Below, one piece after another: positions 21,866 through 35,608 of a stretch of DNA of 64,000 nt. The position numbers and the translations under genes were made by a program. Source of the stretch: an uncultured Candidatus Rokubacteria bacterium (GTDB taxonomy: Bacteria > Methylomirabilota > Methylomirabilia > Rokubacteriales > CSP1-6); contig CAVVEU010000029.1 of NCBI GenBank assembly GCA_963747235.1, forward strand, positions 64,001 through 128,000. The letters run 5' to 3'. Each line of letters begins with the position of its first letter. Position 1 is the stretch's first letter. The notes under the pieces are model-generated. The model was not told the DNA's origin. It saw only the letters and a program-made list of their open reading frames with translations, and searched no databases.

Positions 21866-22083
21866 ATGACGCGCGAGTCCGCCCGCGCCCGCCGGGTCTT
21901 CCAGACGCTGATCCTCGTCGTGGCGATGGCGGTGGCGTTCCTGGGCGGGATGCTGGTGGAGCGGCTGCAGTTCCACGCCGAACGGGATGCGATGCTGCGA
22001 CGGTACGATCAGGCGCTCCGCGAGCACCGGGCCCGCGTGATGGAGGCGGAGAAGCGGGGGAAGAAATTACCCGGAAGCCCTAG
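21866..22083 (+). CDS. Small single-TM hypothetical protein
   Basis: MTRESARARRVFQTLILVVAMAVAFLGGMLVER + helical tail; TATCAT 7 nt before the ATG; probable indel near the end. Confidence 0.55.
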
Positions 22084-22458
22084 CCGGCCACCAGGCGGGC
22101 CGCCCCGATGCCCAGCAGGCACGCCGCGAAGCACAGCGCGGTGGTGAGCGCGACGTAGAGCAGCCGCCGCTCCCCACGAGCCGGCGGCGGCCAGCCGCAG
22201 CGACTCGTAGGCGAACGCCGAGTAGGTGGTGAAGCCGCCCAGGACTCCGACCGCCAGTACCACCCGCGCGTTCTCCGGGAGCACCGCCGAGCCGAAGGCC
22301 AGCTCCTGGACCAGGCCGATGCAGAACGACCCGACCACGTTGACGAGCAGGGTGCCGTGGGGAAATCGCCGCCGAGCCAGCGGAGTGGCGAGGCCGCCCA
22401 GGAGATAGCGGGCCCCGGTTCCCACCGCGCCGCCCAGGCAGACGAGGGCGAAGTGCAC
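22080..22458 (-). CDS. crcB: Fluoride channel Fluc/CrcB (indels)
   Basis: GGAVGTGARY, FPHGTLLVNVVGSF, GVLGGFTTYSAF. Confidence 0.88.
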
Positions 22459-22466
22459 GCGCGCGA

Positions 22467-23881
22467 TCAGTCGACGGGCGGCCGGCGGTCCGCCCAGGGC
22501 TGCGCGGCCTCGAAGGCGGCGGACGCGGCCAGGACGGTGTGATCGGCGTGGCGGCGCCCGACGATCTGCAGCCCCACCGGCAGCCCCGCGCTCGTGAAGC
22601 CGACCGGGACGGTGGCGGCGGGCTGGCCGGTGAGGTTGAACGGGAAGCAGAACGGCGTCCAGCCGAGTGGCGAGGACGGCTGGCCGTTGACCTCGTTGAG
22701 CCCGGGCTTGCCGACCTCGAACGCGGGCACCGCCACCGTGGGCGTGATCAGCAGATCGAAGCGCGCGAGGAACCGCTGCACCTCCGTCCAGAACTCCCCG
22801 CGGCGCGCGCATCGCGCGGAGGTATTGCGCGGCGGTGACGCCGGCGCCGAAGCGCAGCAGGGCCCGGAGCGAGCGGTCCATCTGCTCGCCGTCGGCCTCG
22901 AGCCGGTCGCCCCACGCGCTCCACGTCTCGGCGCCGACGGTGACGCGGAAGGTCTCCTCGGGATCCTCCCAGGAGGGGGACACGACTTCCACGTGCCCGC
23001 CGAAGCTCTCGAAGCGCTCGGCCGCCGCCGCGCACAGATCGGCCACCTCCGGATCCACGCGCGCGTAGCCGAGATCGGGCGACCAGGCCACGCTGAGCCC
23101 CGCGATGTCGCCCTCGCAGGCGGCCAGGAACGCGTGCGGGGCGGCGGGGAGCGAGTGGCGGTCGCGATCGTCGGGGCCCGCGATCGCGTCCAGCATGAGG
23201 GCCGCGTCGCGGACGGTGCGGGTCAGCGGCCCGGTGTGGGAGAGCGTCTCCCAGCCGCGGAAAGCCCGGATTCTGTGGCACGCGGCCGAAGGACGGCTTG
23301 AGCCCGTAGATCCCGCAGAACGACGCGGGGATCCGGATGGAGCCGCCGCCGTCGGTGCCCACCGCGAGGGGGCCGAGGCCCGCGGCCACCGCCGCCCCCG
23401 CGCCGCCGCTCGAGCCGCCCGGCGTGAGCGCCGGGTTCCAGGGATTGCGGGTGATCCCGAAGAGCGGGCTCTCCGTCACCGCCTTGTGGCCGAACTCGGG
23501 CGTCGTGGTCTTGCCGATGATGATGGCGCCCGCGCCCTTCAAGCGCTCCACCGAGACCGCGTCCTCCTCGGGCACATGATCGATGAAGAGCCGCGAGCCG
23601 CCGGTGGTGGGCACACGCCGCGTGAAGAGCAGGTCCTTGATGGATACCGGCACGCCGTGCAGCGGGCCGAGCTCCTCGCCGGTCATCACCGTGACCTCGG
23701 CGGCGACCGCGGCGTCGCGCGCTTCCTCCGCGGTCACCGCGGCGAAGCAGTTGAGCGTGGGATTGAGGCGCTCGACACGCGCCAGCACCGCGTCCACCAC
23801 CTCGACGGGCGAGACCTTCTTGGCCCGGATGAGCGCGGCCAGCTCGGTGGCCGGGATCCATCCGAGATCGGGCGTCGCCAT
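22467..23881 (-). CDS. Amidase signature family enzyme (indels near 22810 and 23265)
   Basis: GPLHGVPVSIKD, GGSSGG, GTDGGGSIRIPAS, PFNLTGQPA. Confidence 0.92.
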
Positions 23882-24294
23882 CAGGTCCCGGGGTTCACGC
23901 GAGCCAGGGTGTAGTCCACGTGGGTCGCGCCTGAGCCCTCGATGACGGTCAGCCGGCAGAGGTCGTCACCCTTGAAGAACTCGGCCCAGATCCCGGGGAA
24001 CTTCTCCGCGTTGACGAAGCGCTCGCTCCGGGCCTCCTGCCAGCCCGCGTTGGCCAGCAGGGCTCGCGCGGTGGCCAGCGTCGTCTCCACGTCGCTCGTC
24101 GTGAAGTAGATGAGGCGGGCCGCCGTGACCTTCTGGGTTCGGATGATGGCCCAGTCGTCGGAGTACGGGGTCCACTCGGCGGGCACCGGCACGTCCGGGA
24201 ACGGCTGGATCGGCATGGGCACCACGACCGGTGCGCACGCGCCGAGCCACAGCGCGATCCCCATCACGATCGGCCGGACCTTCACGCGCCGCAT
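23881..24294 (-). CDS. Hypothetical lipoprotein
   Basis: Lipobox LGAC after a hydrophobic stretch; start ATG 24294 or GTG 24285. Confidence 0.6.
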   Translation of the reverse strand: MRRVKVRPIVMGIALWLGACAPVVVPMPIQPFPDVPVPAEWTPYSDDWAIIRTQKVTAARLIYFTTSDVETTLATARALLANAGWQEARSERFVNAEKFPGIWAEFFKGDDLCRLTVIEGSGATHVDYTLARVNPGT

Positions 24295-24356
24295 TGTATC
24301 CGCAGGTCCGCGGTCCGGCAACCGCGGCGCGCGGCGGTGCTAGAGTAGCGGTCATA

Positions 24357-25702
24357 TTGGACCGCGCCACGCTGCCCCGCCTGCGCGCCTGGCTCGCGCG
24401 CCCCGACATCGTCGCCCTCGACCCCGAAGGCGTCGAGCGGCTCGTGGCCGCGCTCGACGATCCGGACCCGCCGGTCGCGGCGGGCCGCACCGGCTCGCTG
24501 ATCGCCTACGCGCCGGGGCGCGCGCGGCGCCGGCTGCTCCAGTTCGATCGCCGCGGGCATCTGATCGCCGCGTGCCGCTGGCGCGACGACGGGGAGCTCG
24601 GGTGGGCCAAGTGTCTCCTCCCCGACGGCCGCTGGCTCGGCATCGAGCCGGGCGCGGACACGCACCCGGCGTGGGGCGGCTCGGATCGGGTCTGGCTGAT
24701 GGCGTCCGACGCGCCGTGGACGACGCGTGAAGCCCTCACCCTCTTCCAGTCGCTCGACTACGCGCGCCCCGACTTCATCCCGCCGCTCTTCGAGCCGCGC
24801 CGGTTGCCGCCGGGGGGCGGCACCACCCTGCTCAACCTGATCGCGGGACTCATGAAGGACCATGGGGTCGCCACCGTGCGCTATCGCGGGCCCTACCCCA
24901 CCGAGCAGCTCTTCACCGCCCTGCTCGAGTGCTTTCGCTACGCGGCGGGCGAGGGGCTGCCGCTCGAGCGCTTCCTCGCCGATGGCGCGCTCGACTGGCA
25001 TCCCGCTCCGTTCGAGGCACAGCACGTGCGGCCCGGGGTGGTCGTGCAGCTCCGCCACGAGATCGAGAAGGTCACACCTCGCCGGCGCCGCCTTCTACCG
25101 CACCGACTGGCAGGACATCCGGCGGCGCGAGCCCCGCGTGGTCCGGAGCGACGGCGACCGGGTCATCTGCTCGCTGTGGGCCCTGGGCGGGCCGCTGGAG
25201 GACCGGCTGGTGCTCGATCCCGCCGGCGAGATCATCGAGTCGCCCGAGCCGGCGGTGGACACGGCGGCGCCGGCGCCGCTGCCCCCGATCTGGCGGGGGG
25301 CGCTCGCCGAGCTGATCGCGCGCGAGGGCGCGCCCGCGCTGGCGCCCGCCATCGCCGCGGTCACGGATGATCTCGAGCTGGAGTGGGGGCCGGTCCCGGG
25401 CGACCTCCTCCGCGCGCACGGCCAGCGGGTGCGCCTGAGCCGGCGGCTGCGCGAGGCCGGCGCGGCCGCGCGGGCCGGCGCCGCCTCCCCGCAGGAGCGC
25501 GCCGAACAGGCGCTGCGCTTCGTGCTCGAGGTCGCGCGCCTGCTCGGCCCCGAGGTGCGCCAGCGGGCCCAGGCCCGGCCTCGAAGCGCTCAGCGAAGAC
25601 GAGCAGCGCCGCGTGCTCGAGGAGGCGCCGGACGAGCTGCCGGAGGCCCTGGGCGAAGCGGTCGGGCGCCTGATCGCCCTGGTCATTCGGGGCGGCGGGT
25701 AG
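24357..25702 (+). CDS. Hypothetical protein, about 445 aa (indels near 25075 and 25575)
   Basis: Continuous coding-like frames (RRLLQFDRRG, YRGPYPTEQLFTALLECFRY, CSLWALG..LEDRL); no family recognised. Confidence 0.6.
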
Positions 25703-25774
25703 CGCGCCCCGATAGGGCCGGAACGAGACTTCGCGGCTCCGCGACGAGCGTCCGCGGAGCCGGAGCCCCGCGCC

Positions 25775-27029
25775 CTAAGACTTACCAGCACTCGAGAGCA
25801 GCCAGACGTTCAAAAGCACAAACCCGGCGATCGACACGAAGGAGAGCACGAAGTAGGTGAGGCAGATCGTCTCCTGCCGGGTGAGAGGGTGGCGCTACGC
25901 ACGCGTCGCCAGAGGGACTCGCGCACGAAGCGCACCGAGTCGTGGTTCAGCGTGGGCACCCCGACCATCTCGACCAGGATGTGGTAGCCGTCCATCTCCA
26001 GGAAGCAGAACGGGTAGAGGCTGATGAAGAACGACTGGATCTGGAGGATGGCGGAGGCCGCGATGAAGCCCTGGATCAGGCCGGGCTGGAGGAGGGTGGC
26101 GAGCCAGAAGCAGAAGCCGCCCAGGAAGAGGTGGAAGAGCGGCCCCGCCACCGCGTTGACGATCCGGGCCCGGCGGCTGGCCATGAAGATGTCGGTCACG
26201 TCGGCGTAGAAGGTCGGGATGAAGCCGTGCAGGATCGTGAAGCCGAACTCGCGCACGCGCCGCTTGTAGTGGATGCAGGCCAGCGCGTGGATGATCTGGT
26301 GGTTGATCACGGTGAGCCAGAACACGATCTTCACGAGCAGGATGGCGACGAGCGGGTGGCTGGCGAGCCCGTGCGTCACCTCGCTCAGGTTGTGCCAGAT
26401 CTTGATCCCGCTGTGGACACCGAGCCCCACCATGAGCACGAGCGCGGCGATGGCCCACGGGGAGAAGAGCAGGAAGCCGCCGTAGCGGTACATCCGCTCG
26501 AAGAACTGGTGCGAGCGCCGGCTCGTCACGGTCAGGCGCTCGAGCGCGTGGAGCGTGCCCTCCATCGCCCGGGCCGCGGGGTTGCGCCGGTTGCGGGCCA
26601 GCACCGCGCGCAGGCGCGAGACCGGCCGCATCGTCAGGAGGTCGGCCCGCAGCAACTTGACGATCAGGGTCGGGATGATCTCGAAATCGAAGGAGCCGTA
26701 CTGGAGCAGGTACGAGGTCGCGATCTCCTGGAGCGAGGCGTGGCCGTCCATCTGCGCCCACAGGAACTTCTCGGTCTCGCTGATCTGGATGATCTGCTCG
26801 GTGCGGCGGTTCTTGAGCGCGTAGGTGACGACGCCCTGGGGCGCGTAGGGCAGGCGCGCCATCTCCCAGTCCGCGTCCGGGATGCGCTGGGGCCGGCTGT
26901 GGAGGTAGGCGACCGCGCTGGAGATCTCCTCCGCGTCTCGAAGCCGGCGCCGTCCTGCTCGCGCACCAGCAGCTCGATGCGCGTGCGCTTCGGCCTGCCT
27001 TCCGCCGTCTTGTCGCTGGCCTCGCTCAC
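25775..27029 (-). CDS. RRE (PqqD-like) domain fused to an M50/site-2 protease-like membrane domain with HQxxH instead of HExxH (indels near 26935 and 25885)
   Basis: N-terminal RP...TYALKNRRTEQIIQISETEKFLWAQMDGHASLQEI (RRE pattern); NHQIIHALAC, VREFGF, FYADVTD, AVAGP, SLYPFCFLEMDGYHIL (M50 pattern). Confidence 0.8.
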
Positions 27030-27047
27030 GATCGAGGTCTCGGCCCG

Positions 27048-27548
27048 CTACTTGTGCTCGATGTCGAGGCCCGTCGCCTCCAGCCCCCAGCGCGTGACTT
27101 CGGCCACCAGGTCGGAGGCGTCGCGCAGCCGCTTGAAGGCGACCTGCGCCATCTGCTGGAAGAACTTGGCGGCCGCGAGCGGGCTGCCCGTCACGAAGCG
27201 GTTGAGGCTGTCGCGATCGAGGCTGTAGAGCATGGTGTCGATCTCGGCCTGGCAGGTGGCCGAGCGGCGCCGCTCGTCGCCGAAGACGCTCATCTCGCCG
27301 AAGACCTCGCCGGAGGCGAGCCGGGAGAGCACCTGCTCCACCCGGCCGGTGACCGGCTTGGAGACCACGATGCTGCCCTCCCGGATCAGGAACAGCTCCT
27401 CGCCCGGATCCCCCGCGCGGAACAGCACGTCGCCCTTCTTGAGACGCCGCTCACGGAAGCTGGGCCAGAGCGCGAGAAGGACCGGCTCTTCGACGTCCTT
27501 GAAGTACAGGACCCGACGCAGGAAGCCGATCTCGGGGAGGCTGGCCAC
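27048..27548 (-). CDS. Stand-alone cyclic nucleotide-binding domain protein
   Basis: KGDVLFRAGDPGEELFLIREG, GEVFGEMS, RRSATCQA; no CRP HTH. Confidence 0.9.
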   Translation of the reverse strand: MASLPEIGFLRRVLYFKDVEEPVLLALWPSFRERRLKKGDVLFRAGDPGEELFLIREGSIVVSKPVTGRVEQVLSRLASGEVFGEMSVFGDERRRSATCQAEIDTMLYSLDRDSLNRFVTGSPLAAAKFFQQMAQVAFKRLRDASDLVAEVTRWGLEATGLDIEHK

Positions 27549-27574
27549 TCAGCGGCGTCCCGTGGGCACCCGCA

Positions 27575-27796
27575 TCACGTGGCCCAGCGCTTGAGCATGA
27601 CGTTCTGGAGCGCGCGCGCCCGGTCCAGGTCGGAGACGTTGGACGTGCTGCCCAGAGCGTGCATGATGGCGGCCAGCTCCTCCGGGGTCAGATCGAACGT
27701 AGCCAGCACCCGCGCCGGCTCGCGCACGAGCTCGGCGAGGAACTCCTTGTCGATCATCACCTGTCCGACCAGGTCCTGGATACCCTTGCTGGCCAC
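27575..27796 (-). CDS. NHLP-clan (Os1348/Franean1_4349-like) small peptide, 73 aa
   Basis: SD GAGG + GTG; MASKGIQDLVGQVMIDKEFLAELVREPARVLATFDLTPEELAAI matches the D.EF...L...P...L..(Y/F)DLT.EE leader pattern. Confidence 0.7.
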   Translation of the reverse strand: MASKGIQDLVGQVMIDKEFLAELVREPARVLATFDLTPEELAAIMHALGSTSNVSDLDRARALQNVMLKRWAT

Positions 27797-27960
27797 ACCC
27801 CGACCTCGACTTTTCCGGCCACGCATTTCACGGCTAGGAGGCTCAATTTAGCATACATGGCGCGGTTTTAATACGTCTGTTCCGGAACTCGTCCCGCCTG
27901 GCGTCGATGGGGTTGAGCCGGGAAGCCGGTCGGGCCCCGTCGACGCCACCGCTCGAGGTC

Positions 27961-27984
27961 AACGCCCGGCCGGATTCGTTCGTC
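27961..27984 (+). promoter_or_regulatory. Candidate ECF-type autoregulated promoter
   Basis: AAC-N17-CGTC just upstream of the ECF sigma gene. Confidence 0.4.
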
Positions 27985-28023
27985 TGGACTGATGAGAAGA
28001 GGCGAGACGCCCGTCAGAGGGAC

Positions 28024-28536
28024 GTGGAGCCCGCCCCCCGGCAGGATCTGGTGGTCACCGCCCACTACGGGCGGCTGCAGCGCCTGTGTCGCCTCCTCCT
28101 GGGCGACCCGCAGGAGGCCGACGACGTGGTACAGGAAGTCTTTCTGAAAGCACACGAGGCCGAGCGGCTCGGGCAAGTCCCGGCGAGCTGGGCCGCCTGG
28201 CTCACCCGGGTCGCGGTCAACGGCTGTCGCGACCGCCATCGGGCCGGCGGCTGGATGCGCTTCCGTCTCCGCGGGGTCCGCCTCGACGAGGTGCCCCTGG
28301 TGGCGCTGACCCCCGCGCCCAGCGACGTCGCGATCGGCGCGGACACGCGGCGGCGGATCTGGACCGCCTTCCGCGCGCTGCCGCGGCGCCAGCAGGAGGT
28401 CTTCGCGCTCCGCCACATCGAGGAGCAGCCCACGCTCGCGGTGGCGGCGGCCCTCGGGGTGAGCCCGGGCAGCGTGAAGCGCCATCTCTTCCGCGCGGTG
28501 CGCGCGCTGCGGCTGCGCCTGAGAGACGCCCGGTGA
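28024..28536 (+). CDS. ECF RNA polymerase sigma factor (start uncertain, 27907-28024)
   Basis: EADDVVQEVFLKA, WLTRVAVNGCRD, LPRRQQEVFALR, LGVSPGSVKRHLFRA. Confidence 0.9.
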   Translation: MEPAPRQDLVVTAHYGRLQRLCRLLLGDPQEADDVVQEVFLKAHEAERLGQVPASWAAWLTRVAVNGCRDRHRAGGWMRFRLRGVRLDEVPLVALTPAPSDVAIGADTRRRIWTAFRALPRRQQEVFALRHIEEQPTLAVAAALGVSPGSVKRHLFRAVRALRLRLRDAR

Positions 28537-29497: not shown

Positions 29498-29782
29498 ATG
29501 AAGCGCCTGCTCGTCACCCTGCTGCTGCTCGCGCCCGTCGCGCTGCCCGGGCTCGCCCACGCGAGCCCGCCTGATCCCACCTGGATCCAGGGCATCTACG
29601 ACGATGACGACGGCGACTCCATCGTCACGCTGATCGCCTCCGGGGACCGGCCACGCGCCGGAGGCCGCGCCGACCGGGCTCCCGCTCTTCGCTCCGGCTC
29701 ATCGCCCGCCTGACCCCGAGCCCGAGCGACCCCGCTCCAGGTCTGGCCTCCGCCGGCCCCGTCTCGCGCCCCCGCCCGCTAG
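29498..29782 (+). CDS. Small exported protein with acidic motif and RAP(P)-like C-terminus (indels)
   Basis: MKRLLVTLLLLAPVALPGLAHA-SPPDPTWIQGIYDDDDGDSIV...; ends ...SRAPAR* as written. Confidence 0.5.
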
Positions 29783-31327: not shown

Positions 31328-32493
31328 ATGGCGGGAAGGGCCCGGCGGTTCTGGGTGATCGGCCTTATCCTGTGCGGCCTCCTCGCCGCCGGCGCGTACT
31401 ACGCGGTGGCCCGACCCAAGCGGATCCAGCCCGCCGCCCCCGCGGCCGGCCCCCGCCCGGTACCGGTCGTGACCGTCACCGCCCGCAGCGGCGATCTCGG
31501 CGTCTACCTCACCGGGCTCGGCTCGGTCACCCCGCTCAGCACCGTCACGGTTCGCAGCCGAGTAGACGGCCAGCTCATGCGGACGCTCTTCCAGGAAGGC
31601 CAGATCGTGCGCGCGGGCGACCTCCTTGCCGAGATCGATCCCCGCCCCTTCGAGACGCAGCTCACCCAGGCGGAAGCGCAGCTCGCCAAGGACGAGGCCG
31701 CGCTGGCGAATGCCCGCATGGATCTCGAGCGCTACCGCACGCTCGTCAAGGGCGGATTCATCCCGCAGCAGCAGATGGACACCCAGGGCTCCGCGGTCGC
31801 GCAGCTCGCGGCGTCCATCAAGGCCGACCAGGGGCAGATCGACAGCATCCGGCTCCAGCTCACCTATACCCGCATCCATCGCCCCCATCACCGGCCGCGC
31901 CGGGCTCCGCCTCGTGGACCCCGGCAACATGGTGCACGCCAACGATGGGGGCGGGCTCGTCGTGCTCGCCCAGGTCGAGCCGATCGCGGTGGTGTTCACG
32001 ATTCCCCAGGACAACCTGCCGCCGGTGCTCGCCCGCCAGCGCGCGGGCGGGTCCATCCCGGTGGACGCCTACGATCGCGAGGGCCGCACCAAGCTGGCGA
32101 CCGGCGTCCTGGTCGCGGTGGACAACCAGATCGACGCCGGCGACCGGCACCGTCAAGCTCAAGGCCTCCTTCGTCAATGGCGACGGCTCGCTGTTCCCGA
32201 ACCAGTTCGTCAACGCGCGCATCCTCGTGGATTCGCTCCGCGGCGCGGTGCTGGTGCCGAACGAGGCGATCCAGCGCGGCGCCCAGGGGCCCTTCGTCTA
32301 CCTGGTGAAGCCGGACAAGACGGTCGAGCTGCGGAAGGTCACGCCCGGGCCCAGCGAGGGCGGCGTCACCGCGGTGCGCGACGGCGTGGCCGCGGGCGAC
32401 GCCCTCATCGTGGACGGGGCCGACCGCGTGCAGGAGCGCTCGCGCGTGGAGCCCACGAGCCGCGAGCGGCCCGCCGCGCGCGCGGCTCCATGA
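31328..32493 (+). CDS. mdtA: RND efflux periplasmic adaptor MdtA/MuxA (indels)
   Basis: [64 protein letters not shown]. Confidence 0.88.
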
Positions 32494-35400
32494 ACCCGTC
32501 GCGCGTCTTCATCCTCCGGCCGGTCGCCACCTCGCTGCTCACCGTCGCCATCGTTCTCGCCGGGATCGTCGCCTACCGGCTGCTCGCGGTCTCGGCCCTG
32601 CCCCAGGTGGACTACCCGACCATGCAGGTGCAGACGTTCTACCCGGGGGCGAGCCCGGACGTGATGGCCTCCGCGGTCACCGCGCCGCTCGAGCGCCAGT
32701 TCGGGCAGATGCCCGGGCTCAAGCAGATGACCTCCACCAGCTCGAGTACCGCGTCGGTCATCACGCTGCAGTTCGACCTCAACCTGGCCCTGGACGTCGC
32801 GGAGCAGCAGGTGCAGGCCGCGATCAACGCGGCCACGTCGTTCCTGCCCGGCGACCTGCCCAACCCGCCGATCTACAGCAAGGTCAATCCCGCCGACGCG
32901 CCGATCCTCACCCTGGGCCTCACCTCCGCCTCCCTGCCGCTCACCACCGTGCAGGACCTGGCCGACACCCGCCTCGTGCCGAAGATCTCCCAGCTTCCCG
33001 GGGTGGGCCTGGTCAGCCTGAGCGGCGGCCAGAAGCCGGCGATCCGGATCCAGGTCAATCCCGCGCTCCTCGCCGCCAACGGGCTCACCCTCGACGACGT
33101 GCGCGGCGGCGGTGGCCGCGGCCAACGTGAACCAGGCCAAGGGCAGCCTCGACGGCAGCCGTCAGGCCTTCACCATCGGCGCCAACGACCAGCTCACGTC
33201 GAGCGATCAGTACGGGAACCTGGTGGTGGCCTATCGCAACGGCGCGCCGGTGCACCTCTCCGACGTGGCCGACACGCGTGGACGACGCGGAGAACCTGCG
33301 GCAGGCCGCGTGGATGGACGATGGAGCCCGCGGTCATCGTCAACATCCAGCGCCAGCCGGGCGCGAACCTCATCCAGGTGGTGGACCGCGTCAAGCAGCT
33401 CCTGCCCCAGCTCCAGAGCACCCTGCCCGGCTCGGTGAAGGTCGCGATCCTGACCGACCGCACCACCACCATCCGGGCCTCGGTGCACGACGTGCAGGTC
33501 GAGCTGATGCTGGCGGTGGTCCTGGTCGTCCTCGTGATCTTCCTGTTCCTGGGCAGCCCCGCCGCCACCTTCATCCCGTCGATCGCGGTGCCCGTCTCCA
33601 TCATCGGGACGTTCGCGGTCATGTATGCGCTGAACTTCAGCCTGAACAACCTCTCCCTGATGGCGCTCACCATCGCCACCGGCTTCGTGGTGGACGACGC
33701 GGTGGTCATGATCGAGAACATCGCCCGCTACCTCGAGGCGGGCGACGCGCCGCTCGAGGCCGCGCTCAAGGGCTCGGCCCAGATCGGCTTCACGATCCTC
33801 TCCCTGACCGTCTCTCTCATCGCGGTGCTGATCCCGCTCCTCTTCATGGGCGACATCGTGGGCCGGCTCTTCCGCGAGTTCGCGATCACGCTGAGCGCGG
33901 CGATCCTGGTGTCCGCCGCGGTGTCCCTGACCCTCACGCCCCATGCTCTGCGCCCGGCTCCTGCAGCACCGCGAGGAGCGAAACCCGGGCCCGTGGCCCG
34001 CGCCTCCCAGGCCGTCTTCAACCGGGTCCTCGCCCTCTACGCGCGCACCCTCCGGGTGGTGCTCGATCACCAGCCCGCGACCCTGCTGGTGGCGGTGGCG
34101 ACGCTCGGGCTCACCCTCGTCCTCTACGTGGCGGTGCCCAAGGGCCTCTTCCCGGTCCAGGACACCGGGGTGATCCTGGGCATCTCGGAGGCGCCCCAGA
34201 GCGTCTCCTTCCCGGCCATGGCCCAGCGCCAGCGCGCCCTCGCCCAGGCCATCCTGCGCGATCCGGCGGTGGCCACCCTCTCGTCGTTCATCGGGATCGA
34301 CGGCACCAACGTGACGCTCAACAGCGGGCGCCTGCTGATCACGCTCAAGCCGCTCGACGAGCGGCGGGCCTCGGTGGGCGCGATCATCGACCGCCTGCGC
34401 CCGCGCCTCGCCGAGGTGAGCGGCATCACGCTCTATCTCCAGCCGGTGCAGGACCTCACGGTGGAGGACCGGGTGAGCCGCACCCAGTACCAGTACAGCC
34501 TGGAGAACCCGAGCGTGGACGAGCTCAACACGTGGGCCCCGCGCCTGGTGGAGCGCCTGCGGGCCCTGCCCGAGCTGCGGGACGTGGCGAGCGATCAGCA
34601 GGACCAGGGGCTCGAGACGTCGATCCGCATCGACCGCAGCACCGCGTCGCGCCTCGGGATCACGCCCCAGATGATCGACGACGCGCTCTACAACGCCTTC
34701 GGCCAGCGCCAGATCTCGACGATCTTCACCCAGCTCAACCAGTACCGCGTCGTGCTCGAGGTCAAGCCCGAGTTCCGCCAGAGTCCGGACGCGCTCAGCA
34801 GATCTACCTGCGCTCGGCCGGGGCGGCCAGGTGCCGCTCTCGACGTTCACCGCCATCGAGGAGCGGGCCACCCCGCTGCTGGTCAGCCACCAGGGCCAGT
34901 TCCCGGCGGTGACCGTCTCCTTCAACCTGGCGCCCGGCGTGTCGCTCGGCGCGGCGGTGGACGTCATCGAGCGGGCCCGGCGCGATCTCAGGATGCCCGC
35001 GGGCATCGAGACGCGGCTTCCAGGGCGCCGCGCACGCCTTCCAGGCCTCGCTCGCCAACGAGCCGCTCCTGATCCTGGCCGCGGTGTTCACGGTCTACAT
35101 CGTGCTGGGCGTGCTCTACGAGAGCTGGATCCACCCGGTGACCATCCTGTCCACCCTGCCCTCGGCCGGCGTCGGCGCCCTGCTCGCCCTGATGGCGGCG
35201 CGCCTCGACCTGAGCGTGATCGCGCTGATCGGCATCATCCTGCTCATCGGCATCGTGATGAAGAACGCGATCATGATGATCGACTTCGCGCTCGACGCCC
35301 AGCGCACCGAGGGCAAGCCCGCGCCCGAGGCGATCTACCAGGCCTGCCTGCTGCGCTTCCGCCCGATCGTGATGACCACGATGGCCGCGCTGCTGGGCGG

Positions 35401-35608
35401 CGTGCCGCTGGCGCTGGGCCAGGGCGTCGGCTCCGAGCTGCGCCAGCCGCTCGGCATCGCGATCGTGGGCGGGCTCATCATGAGCCAGCTCCTCACGCTC
35501 TACACCACCCCGGTGATCTACCTCGCCTTCGACCGGCTCGCCGCGCGCGCCACCCGGCGCCGCGCCGCCCCCGCGGGCCCCCTCGCCGCCGCGGAGCCCC
35601 GCGCGTGA
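32490..35608 (+). CDS. mdtB: RND efflux permease MdtB/MuxB (several indels)
   Basis: [64 protein letters not shown]. Confidence 0.9.

Follow-up and report, generated by a model that had tools for sequence, protein, structure and literature searches.

A lineage-wide, putative three-gene operon of Rokubacteria built around an RRE-fused, site-2-protease-like membrane protein with HQxxH in place of HExxH

The system described here is a set of three genes lying head to tail on the minus strand of a 64,000-nucleotide (nt) stretch of DNA (the window, i.e. positions 64,001-128,000 of the forward strand of contig CAVVEU010000029.1, hereafter C29, in assembly GCA_963747235.1; all coordinates below are the window's own), which comes from an uncultured Candidatus Rokubacteria bacterium (Methylomirabilota; Methylomirabilia; Rokubacteriales; CSP1-6). 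In order, the genes encode: (i) a small protein of 73 amino acids (aa) that resembles the NHLP/Nif11 clan of peptide precursors; (ii) a stand-alone protein of the type that binds cyclic nucleotide monophosphates (cNMP); and (iii) a membrane protein in which a recognition element (RRE) of the kind that docks leaders of peptides made by ribosomes and modified after translation (RiPPs) precedes a core of the site-2 protease (S2P) type. Intergenic gaps of 26 and 18 nt separate them, in keeping with the initial annotation of the DNA, which had recorded three co-oriented genes less than 30 nt apart. The genome (G000; 5.57 Mb in 42 contigs, C29 being one of them) is 88% complete with 4.9% contamination, the GC content of the window is 72%, and the close homologues carry the source names Methylomirabilota or Rokubacteria.

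The membrane protein and its altered metalloprotease motif

The metalloprotease motif of the membrane protein reads HQIIH in the window, and not HExxH, a key feature that had been overlooked when the protein was annotated with an M50-type domain. In the profile alignment, the glutamine occupies the column of the catalytic glutamate of the S2Ps MjS2P and SpoIVFB (HELGH). Related loci were collected from species-representative genomes (n = 71, spanning 49-100% identity), and HQxxH is found in 70 of them, the 71st ending before the motif, so that a sequencing error can be dismissed as its origin. In a smaller alignment (A1), all 21 members of this clade have Gln and all 44 members of the HExxH group have Glu; as the distant HExxH set from metagenomes was fetched with an HEL pattern, its Glu count holds by construction, and the unbiased comparison is that of the 150 best representatives out of a scan of 1.84 billion proteins. 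There, HExxH is found in 100 sequences, HQxxH in 18 and HVxxH in 4, the other 28 being fragments that lack this region (the script gave 99 HExxH and 17 HQxxH; P0211 and P0129 were assigned by eye). All 18 HQxxH representatives are at least 46% identical to the query, and all are members of the clade or fragments.

The remainder of the presumed active site has been retained. The zinc ligands H243, H247 and D346 are invariant in alignment A1, as are the core residues G262, R288, G295, P339 and G347, and MDGYH[IV] is present in 68 of the 71 loci, the other three being cut short; the invariance of the ligands and core residues indicates that the protein is maintained rather than decaying. At a few further positions that are conserved in the active relatives the clade also differs, with D173 replaced by H, V291 by N and R361 by N. 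The same replacement of Glu by Gln is found in the PDB as an engineered mutation, namely in SpoIVFB with HQLGH (8vjm) and in RseP E18Q (9j83). What is seen here is, thus, the natural version of the change that is used experimentally to inactivate S2Ps. With the fold kept, the catalytic residue lost and the sequence under purifying selection, the membrane protein of the clade has, as judged from its sequence, the marks of a pseudoprotease, and would be inactive. A second group without the glutamate, which has HVLVH instead of HExxH (P0130, P0172, P0213, P0268 and G248:C122:1797-2975), is about 37-38% identical and is thus one of the groups closest to the HQxxH clade.

The identity of the two domains is settled by predicted structure, sequence profiles being below threshold. 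The AlphaFold2 model, made from an intact paralogue encoded on contig C22 of the same genome (predicted local distance difference test score, pLDDT, 85.6; predicted template modelling score 0.78), was compared with known structures by VIA-align. Residues 44-136 match leader-bound RREs of lasso-peptide systems (6jx3_B, Z 9.9, root-mean-square deviation 2.8, 82 aligned residues; 5v1v_A, Z 9.8), with Z 6.8-7.5 for the RREs of heterocyclases and sactisynthases and Z 6.4 for PqqD (3g2b). Residues 164-414 match S2Ps (MjS2P, 3b4r_A, Z 9.4; RseP, 9j83_A, Z 9.1; 7w6y, Z 9.0; SpoIVFB, 8vjl_A, Z 9.0), and the family profile made from alignment A1 also finds the Methanocaldococcus jannaschii S2P (3b4r_A) by sequence, with E 9.3e-7 and the motifs aligned. 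The Pfam scores are 13.7 bits for Peptidase_M50 (cut-off 27.2) and 12.8 bits for PqqD (cut-off 23.4), so that the annotated N-terminal PqqD-like RRE and M50-type domain are borne out by the predicted structure, at Z 9-10, and fall short of the Pfam cut-offs. The best NCBIfam match is NF041824, the intramembrane metalloprotease of daptide systems, with 84.9 bits (cut-off 300); when the genome is searched in six frames with this profile, two copies are returned, at 83.8 and 77.6 bits.

The HExxH relatives, which are found in metagenome loci, belong to the same RRE and S2P family with about 27-36% identity. In L104 (721 aa), L099 (738 aa) and L092 (1176 aa), the active protease carries two cNMP domains fused to its C-terminus; in other loci the cNMP gene is separate, and lies just upstream of the protease gene (L083 and L087) or just downstream of it (L084, L086 and L090). 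Small genes of the Frankia_peptide/NHLP type are found near the active protease in L086, L093, L104, L099 and L109. That of L086 passes the PF14407 cut-off (53.6 bits; cut-off 48), and the L086 and L093 partners, of about 70-72 aa, end in RKAAS, echoing the basic-x-Ala-Ser/Thr end of the small proteins of the clade. No NHLP-like gene was found beside the protease gene in L083 and L087, where a 318-aa gene without Pfam family stands between the cNMP and protease genes (L083:4945-5898; L087:4945-5898). Behind each of the fused genes stands a gene for a conserved, Cys-rich zinc-ribbon protein of some 70 aa (L104:8029-8241, L099:8035-8250 and L092:9269-9478). As the HExxH relatives show the same partnership in active form, the three-part system probably predates the loss of the glutamate.

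The small protein, the cNMP-binding protein and their setting

The small-protein gene starts with a GTG codon at 27796, with GAGG 7-10 nt upstream of it, and ends with a stop codon at 27575-27577; an alternative ATG further upstream, at 27826, would extend the product to 83 aa. Its likeness to the NHLP clan is, by profile comparison, real but sub-threshold, with 37.2 bits against NF038399 (Os1348 NHLP clan; cut-off 40) and 30.1 bits against PF14407 (Frankia_peptide; cut-off 48), and a match of the profile built from 68 homologues to Os1348 (PDB 6lk7_A) over residues 3-31, with E 8.2e-5. The NHLP/Nif11-clan pattern that had been read from the 73-aa sequence is, therefore, backed by the match to Os1348, both curated cut-offs being missed. 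Elsewhere in the genome, NF038399 picks up LigA-like subunits (C14 and C15) and, on C15, the alpha subunit of a nitrile hydratase, none of them a further peptide locus. AlphaFold2 predicts a compact five-helix protein (pLDDT 84.7) with a helix over residues 56-71, i.e. in the tail, which the initial annotation had described as helical in appearance; its remark that the peptide lacks a Gly-Gly site and a Cys-rich core is likewise accurate, neither GG nor Cys being present anywhere in the 73 residues. A fold search with the model returned no match at E 0.001 or better, and its best rows (E about 1-6), which recall the clan but prove nothing, include domains of the DesB/LigA type, Os1348 (6lk7) and the NHLP-type precursor SonA.

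Conservation of the small protein is concentrated at its C-terminus. Among 68 loci, 64 have a product of 73 aa, and nine positions are invariant in alignment A2, including Arg70 and the C-terminal Thr73. The last five residues are KRWAT in 42 loci, RRVAT in 18, KRWST in 4, KRLAT in 2 and RRVST in 2, always with the final Thr. The median ratio of nonsynonymous to synonymous substitution rates (dN/dS), calculated on 33 of the 67 distinct small-protein sequences, is 0.35 for residues 1-45, 0.97 for the linker (46-57) and 0.20 for the last 16 residues (58-73). This pattern of constraint is the reverse of that of a typical RiPP, whose core varies.

The 166-aa product of the second gene matches PF00027 with 74.2 bits (cut-off 27.5), and is indeed the stand-alone cNMP-binding domain that had been annotated, nucleotide binding itself being a prediction; against TIGR03896, the cNMP protein associated with bacteriocin-type transport, it scores 41 bits (cut-off 161). 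The phosphate-binding cassette FGE...R[ST]A is intact in all 71 homologues, and the C-terminal tail, RWGLEATGLD, is conserved. The class III nucleotidyl cyclase domain (PF00211) is matched 27 times in the genome, with the nearest match at C29:149846 and none in the window; the organism appears to have a large repertoire of cNMP signalling and, therefore, a cNMP signal should be available to the system.

Synteny across the relatives, which the initial annotation had proposed to examine, unites the trio in 69-71 of the 71 loci. All 71 have the cNMP gene immediately upstream of the protease gene, and 69 have the small-protein gene upstream of the cNMP gene, the exceptions being L078, on a contig of 1.1 kb, and L061; in L073 the small-protein gene is broken. 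Chance would hardly produce such an arrangement. In a set of 251 genomes from the phylum (two unpublished ones, G076 and G217, included), the protease gene is present in 138 of the 158 genomes of the window's family and in 9 of 21 in a second family, in most cases as a single copy per genome; in the other eleven families it was met in 1 of 71 genomes, with 38% identity to the query. As the gene is mostly single-copy and near-universal in one family, the length and C-terminus of the peptide are fixed and constraint is focused on the tail, a conserved physiological role fits better than an antibiotic.

Seven loci with 56-93% identity to the Rokubacterial gene (87-93% in six of them) come from metagenome-assembled genomes of other phyla (L010, L012, L013, L016, L021, L025 and L051, under the labels Deferrimicrobiaceae, Acidoferrum, Limnocylindria, Nitrosotalea, Verrucomicrobiia, Dormiibacterota and Binatia); their contigs were probably mis-binned rather than transferred.

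The features of the locus are collected in table 1. The membrane-protein gene, which had been annotated as a single continuous gene by reading through two frame breaks without mention, is not one open frame in the window: compared with the C22 paralogue and L009, an insertion of 2 nt at about 26931-26932 and a deletion of 1 nt at about 25886 spread it over three frames, the longest plain open reading frame (ORF) being 25810-26862 (350 aa). Intact homologues are 409-417 aa long and 76-95% identical. The same genome holds a second full trio on contig C22 (peptide, L002:1417-1638(-); cNMP protein, L081:2750-3250(-); protease, L081:1477-2730(-)), in which the protease gene is intact, encoding 417 aa with 94% DNA identity to the window copy, and which has a MacB/FtsX permease gene immediately upstream in the same orientation. 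One copy is present in 18 of the genus's 19 other genomes, and none in the remaining one. The C22 trio may result from a recent duplication or from a co-binned strain.

Table 1. Coordinates of the features of the three-gene locus in the window.
Feature	Position	Strand	Basis
Small-protein gene, 73 aa, NHLP/Nif11-clan, Os1348-like, helical	27575..27796	-	ORF, profiles, AlphaFold2 model
Small-protein tail at the C-terminus, residues 58-73, DRARALQNVMLKRWAT	27578..27625	-	Alignment, end motifs, dN/dS
Gene of the stand-alone cyclic-nucleotide-binding protein, 166 aa	27048..27548	-	PF00027
Phosphate-binding cassette of the cNMP domain, FGEMSVFGDERRRSAT, residues 83-98	27255..27302	-	FGE...R[ST]A motif
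Gene of the RRE and S2P-like (M50-type) membrane protein, 417 aa in intact relatives	25775..27029	-	Homologues, NF041824
First frame break, with 2 bases more than in the C22 paralogue and L009	26930..26933	-	DNA alignment, three-frame translation
Second frame break, with 1 base fewer than in the C22 paralogue and L009	25885..25887	-	DNA alignment, three-frame translation
RRE (PqqD-like winged-helix peptide-docking) domain, residues 44-136	26620..26898	-	AlphaFold2 model, VIA-align
S2P-type membrane core, residues 164-417	25778..26538	-	VIA-align, profile match to MjS2P
HQIIH motif, H243-Q244-I-I-H247; Gln codon CAG at 26296-26298	26287..26301	-	Sequence, profile alignment
Asp346 of EMDGYH, third S2P zinc ligand	25990..25992	-	Aligned to MDG of MjS2P

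The flanks of the trio vary by lineage (MacB, an extracytoplasmic function (ECF) sigma factor, a response regulator, YfhO, FecR-like and TPR proteins, and others), and apart from the trio itself no gene is conserved on its strand in the 71 loci. Only two neighbours recur downstream, namely a convergent gene of 447 aa, placed immediately behind the protease gene, in 44 loci (24231-25860 (+) in the window; L042:9919-11262(-); L081:4-1336(+)) and an amidase in 40. The product of the 447-aa gene has no Pfam family and gave no usable match in the ESM Atlas. On the other side, a divergent gene for an ECF sigma factor (Pfam regions r2 and r4; 27907-28536 (+)) lies 80 nt from the peptide gene, and is followed, up to about position 29500, by genes for a Cys-containing membrane protein and for a protein with a signal peptide, neither with a Pfam match. 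A scan of 25500-28100 for promoters and terminators returned none of either, which is uninformative at 72% GC in a phylum whose promoter rules are unknown.

Enzymes of RiPP maturation were sought in the whole genome, which, as noted, is 88% complete. There were no matches to YcaO or Peptidase_C39; neither LanC-like proteins nor the daptide RRE protein NF041823 gave a match, the control genomes being equally silent in both cases; and the 23 radical SAM matches are all outside C29 and C22. No RiPP modification enzyme is conserved in the 71 loci, the recurring neighbours scanned with Pfam belonging to unrelated families. The initial annotation was, thus, right in finding no modifying enzyme in the window, and none of the three results that it had named as speaking against its interpretation (no RRE or NHLP features, no conservation of the trio, standard enzymes at homologous loci) was obtained.

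Proposed function and competing explanations

The reading that we favour, and to which we would give about even weight, is that the trio is a lineage-wide Rokubacterial operon derived from an RRE-dependent intramembrane leader-peptidase system and now serving as a cNMP-gated binder rather than a cutter. In the scheme that we infer, the membrane protein would hold the 73-aa helical protein at the membrane, its cytoplasmic RRE docking the leader-like N-terminal half, with the constrained tail (…KRWAT-COOH) placed in or near the crippled zinc site and left uncut. The stand-alone cNMP protein would gate capture or release on cAMP or cGMP; that this sensor acts directly on the protease is argued from the natural fusions of the two in the active relatives. 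As output, the level of unbound small protein (or of unbound receptor) would act on some target. The earlier suggestion that RiPP parts have been repurposed as a cNMP-regulated peptide/receptor module, and not as a toxin pathway, finds its support mainly in the clade-wide HQxxH, binding, the lack of a cut and gating remaining conditional.

Prediction of the complex of the protease, Zn and the small protein gave a score of 0.41, the best of three controls scoring 0.00; at least 74% of the contacts are shared between runs, with a partner pLDDT of at least 69. The mark that was applied is passed by 58 of 80 solved complexes and by 2 of 110 mismatched pairs, and at scores of 0.60 or less by 7 of the 80 solved complexes and both mismatches, so that the prediction lends weak support to the pairing of the two proteins. 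A more specific form of the proposal would make the membrane protein a natural substrate-trap S2P, a receptor derived from a RiPP leader peptidase, in which capture is reversible, the RRE sits on the leader half, the carboxylate of Thr73 lies on the zinc in the manner of a product and the cNMP protein acts as the switch; this is possible, if somewhat doubtful. Were it true, a ligand would be known for the first time for an S2P pseudoprotease of bacteria, and the trio would be a case of RiPP machinery turned into a protein switch under second-messenger control that is core to an uncultured lineage.

Several points weigh against the binder reading. The small protein falls below both curated cut-offs of its clan; the complex score is a weak pass without an interface, and the placement of the tail in the active site is a proposal. 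The 447-aa gene, which may belong to the system, is left unexplained. The loss of catalysis rests on the comparison of HQxxH with HExxH, and zinc proteases mutated to Gln can retain trace activity, so that a slow, single-turnover cut could suffice for a signal. The MacB-type permease gene just upstream of the trio, on the same strand, in 11 loci would suit the export of a cut peptide and, with its two indels within 1.25 kb, the window copy itself could be dead.

The last point leads to a reading that concerns this copy only, namely that the indels are real, that the gene is a pseudogene left by a decayed duplication and that the C22 trio alone works. The indels, the intact 417-aa protein encoded on C22 and the presence of two copies here and one in 18 of 19 other genomes of the genus would all agree with it; we nevertheless hold it to be improbable. 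Other, unrelated genes of the window are also split, i.e. the amidase (22009-23881), the 447-aa gene (24231-25860) and an RND pump (31626-35608), as is the 447-aa gene on C22; indels aside, the window copy has no stops and is 94% identical in DNA to that of C22; and, with 4.9% contamination of the bin, the second copy may stem from a co-binned strain. Since several unrelated genes are frame-split too, the two indels are more likely assembly errors than decay. Each of the three window genes just named is spread over two or three frames, and the assembly seems rich in small indels. A wider objection is that the protein may still be a working leader peptidase, by virtue of another residue, of a metal-bound water or of slow turnover, which cuts the linker and frees an unmodified cationic helix of about 16-20 aa; the freed peptide would then be a signal or an unmodified bacteriocin, its timing being under cNMP control. 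The zinc ligands are kept, the nearest profile is that of the daptide leader peptidase, and a leader-like part, a near-neutral linker (dN/dS 0.97) and a conserved tail are arranged as in a precursor. Comparable partners of 70-72 aa, ending in RKAAS, occur with active HExxH relatives, and the MacB-type permease precedes the trio in the 11 loci and in the C22 copy. We judge this outcome unlikely all the same: the change from Glu to Gln is the standard way of inactivating an S2P (PDB 8vjm and 9j83), and it is fixed throughout the clade while the relatives keep Glu; no exporter is conserved with the trio, and the genome gave no match to a C39 peptidase; the predicted fold of the small protein is a compact five-helix unit; and a near-universal, single-copy and slowly evolving gene set is unlike a bacteriocin locus.

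Alternatively, the small protein may not be the ligand at all, the S2P without its glutamate being a scaffold, chaperone or regulator of another client, with the NHLP-type and cNMP proteins forming a separate soluble pair. Intramembrane pseudoproteases, such as iRhom (PMC3149277) and EGY3 (PMC9355673), are known to act on other clients; L083 and L087 pair cNMP and active protease genes, with no NHLP-like gene found beside them; and, once more, the complex score is a weak pass. This is made quite improbable by the retention of the RRE, by definition a domain that docks leader peptides and well folded in the model, by the NHLP-clan gene that accompanies the protease gene in 69 of the 71 loci, and by a complex score of 0.41 where all three controls gave 0.00. 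The membrane protein could also be tied to the divergent ECF sigma factor and the gene that follows it, as an anti-sigma protease or decoy. S2Ps such as RseP do cleave anti-sigma factors, and the ECF factor is confirmed by Pfam and lies close to the peptide gene. However, the ECF gene set stands beside the trio in 10 of the 71 loci, all from close relatives, the gene after the ECF factor has no Pfam anti-sigma match, and the RRE and the NHLP partner would be left unexplained; with the trio mostly occurring without the ECF pair, a sigma/anti-sigma link was rejected, its probability being very slight.

If the binder reading holds, a likely ligand and a likely regulator are encoded beside a dead protease, which makes binding and its control testable with three small genes. 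Being near-universal and single-copy in a large family of uncultured soil bacteria, the module probably has a core physiological function. Furthermore, RRE-containing loci that genome mining marks as 'RiPP-like' need not make natural products, which matters for their counts in soil metagenomes.

Comparison with known systems

No publication describing this three-gene module was found, and the parts of the trio have different counterparts. For the small protein, the closest solved relative is Os1348, also a small folded protein of the NHLP clan and PF14407-like; in Pseudomonas sp. Os17, the accessible part of its description (PDB 6lk7; PMC7726476) places it beside a GNAT acetyltransferase, a soluble HEXXH protein and a SagB-type dehydrogenase, and links it to antibiotic activity. 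It differs in having neither an RRE-S2P partner nor a cNMP protein, and the window's peptide misses the cut-off of the Os1348 profile (37.2 versus 40 bits). For the cNMP protein, TIGR03896 is a precedent for such proteins beside NHLP-type peptides, the trio's 41 bits being below the cut-off of 161. Members of that family have two cNMP domains and go with C39-ABC exporters and HlyD; C39 was not found in this genome.

For the membrane protein, the nearest described system is that of the daptides, whose MpaP/DapP carries an RRE fused N-terminally to an S2P, and whose precursor has an invariant C-terminal Thr, according to the accessible part of the preprint (bioRxiv 10.1101/2023.03.08.531785). 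As far as that part goes, the two are alike in the N-terminal RRE and S2P core and in a short ribosomal partner that ends in Thr. The trio differs in HQxxH, in scoring 84.9 bits where the cut-off is 300 and in its cNMP sensor; no dehydrogenase, aminotransferase or methyltransferase is conserved beside it among the recurring neighbours scanned with Pfam; and its peptide belongs with the NHLP clan and is without the ELExMEAP leader of daptides. Membership in this class, suggested by the best NCBIfam match and the C-terminal Thr, was rejected, no DapB-type gene having been found in the 88%-complete genome, where the control genomes were equally silent, and no modification genes among the neighbours scanned. 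Three features separate the trio from daptide-type systems: its lack of the catalytic Glu, its score below the family cut-off and, as far as the scanned neighbours go, its lack of companion enzymes.

S2P mutants in which the catalytic Glu is replaced by Gln bind substrate without cutting it, and are used as substrate traps. The engineered proteins in 8vjm (SpoIVFB, HQLGH) and 9j83 (Aquifex RseP, E18Q) have the identical replacement in the same column. They are laboratory mutants of active enzymes, whereas the Rokubacterial change is natural, clade-wide and old, and their substrates are membrane or membrane-associated proteins rather than RRE-docked peptides. A parallel to the cNMP sensor exists in SpoIVFB, which carries a nucleotide-binding (CBS) domain. 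Catalytically dead and conserved intramembrane proteases that are thought to bind rather than cut are found in plant EGY3, of the S2P family, and in the iRhoms, as described in the accessible parts of the respective reports (PMC9355673; PMC3149277). Both are eukaryotic, and differ from the Rokubacterial protein in being without an RRE, a dedicated small partner gene or a cNMP sensor. In addition, EGY3 is not known to have any of the zinc motif, whereas the Rokubacterial protein keeps its metal ligands. Intramembrane pseudoproteases are known in eukaryotes; no report was found of a bacterial one of the S2P type with a dedicated partner.

The systems nearest to the trio also include its active relatives, which share with it the RRE and S2P domains, the association with cNMP proteins and, in some loci, a small gene of the NHLP type. 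They differ in having kept the catalytic Glu, in gene order, in the frequent fusion of the cNMP domains to the protease and in the zinc-ribbon gene that follows the fused forms. The fused relatives suggest a wider and so far undescribed class of intramembrane proteolysis under cNMP control.

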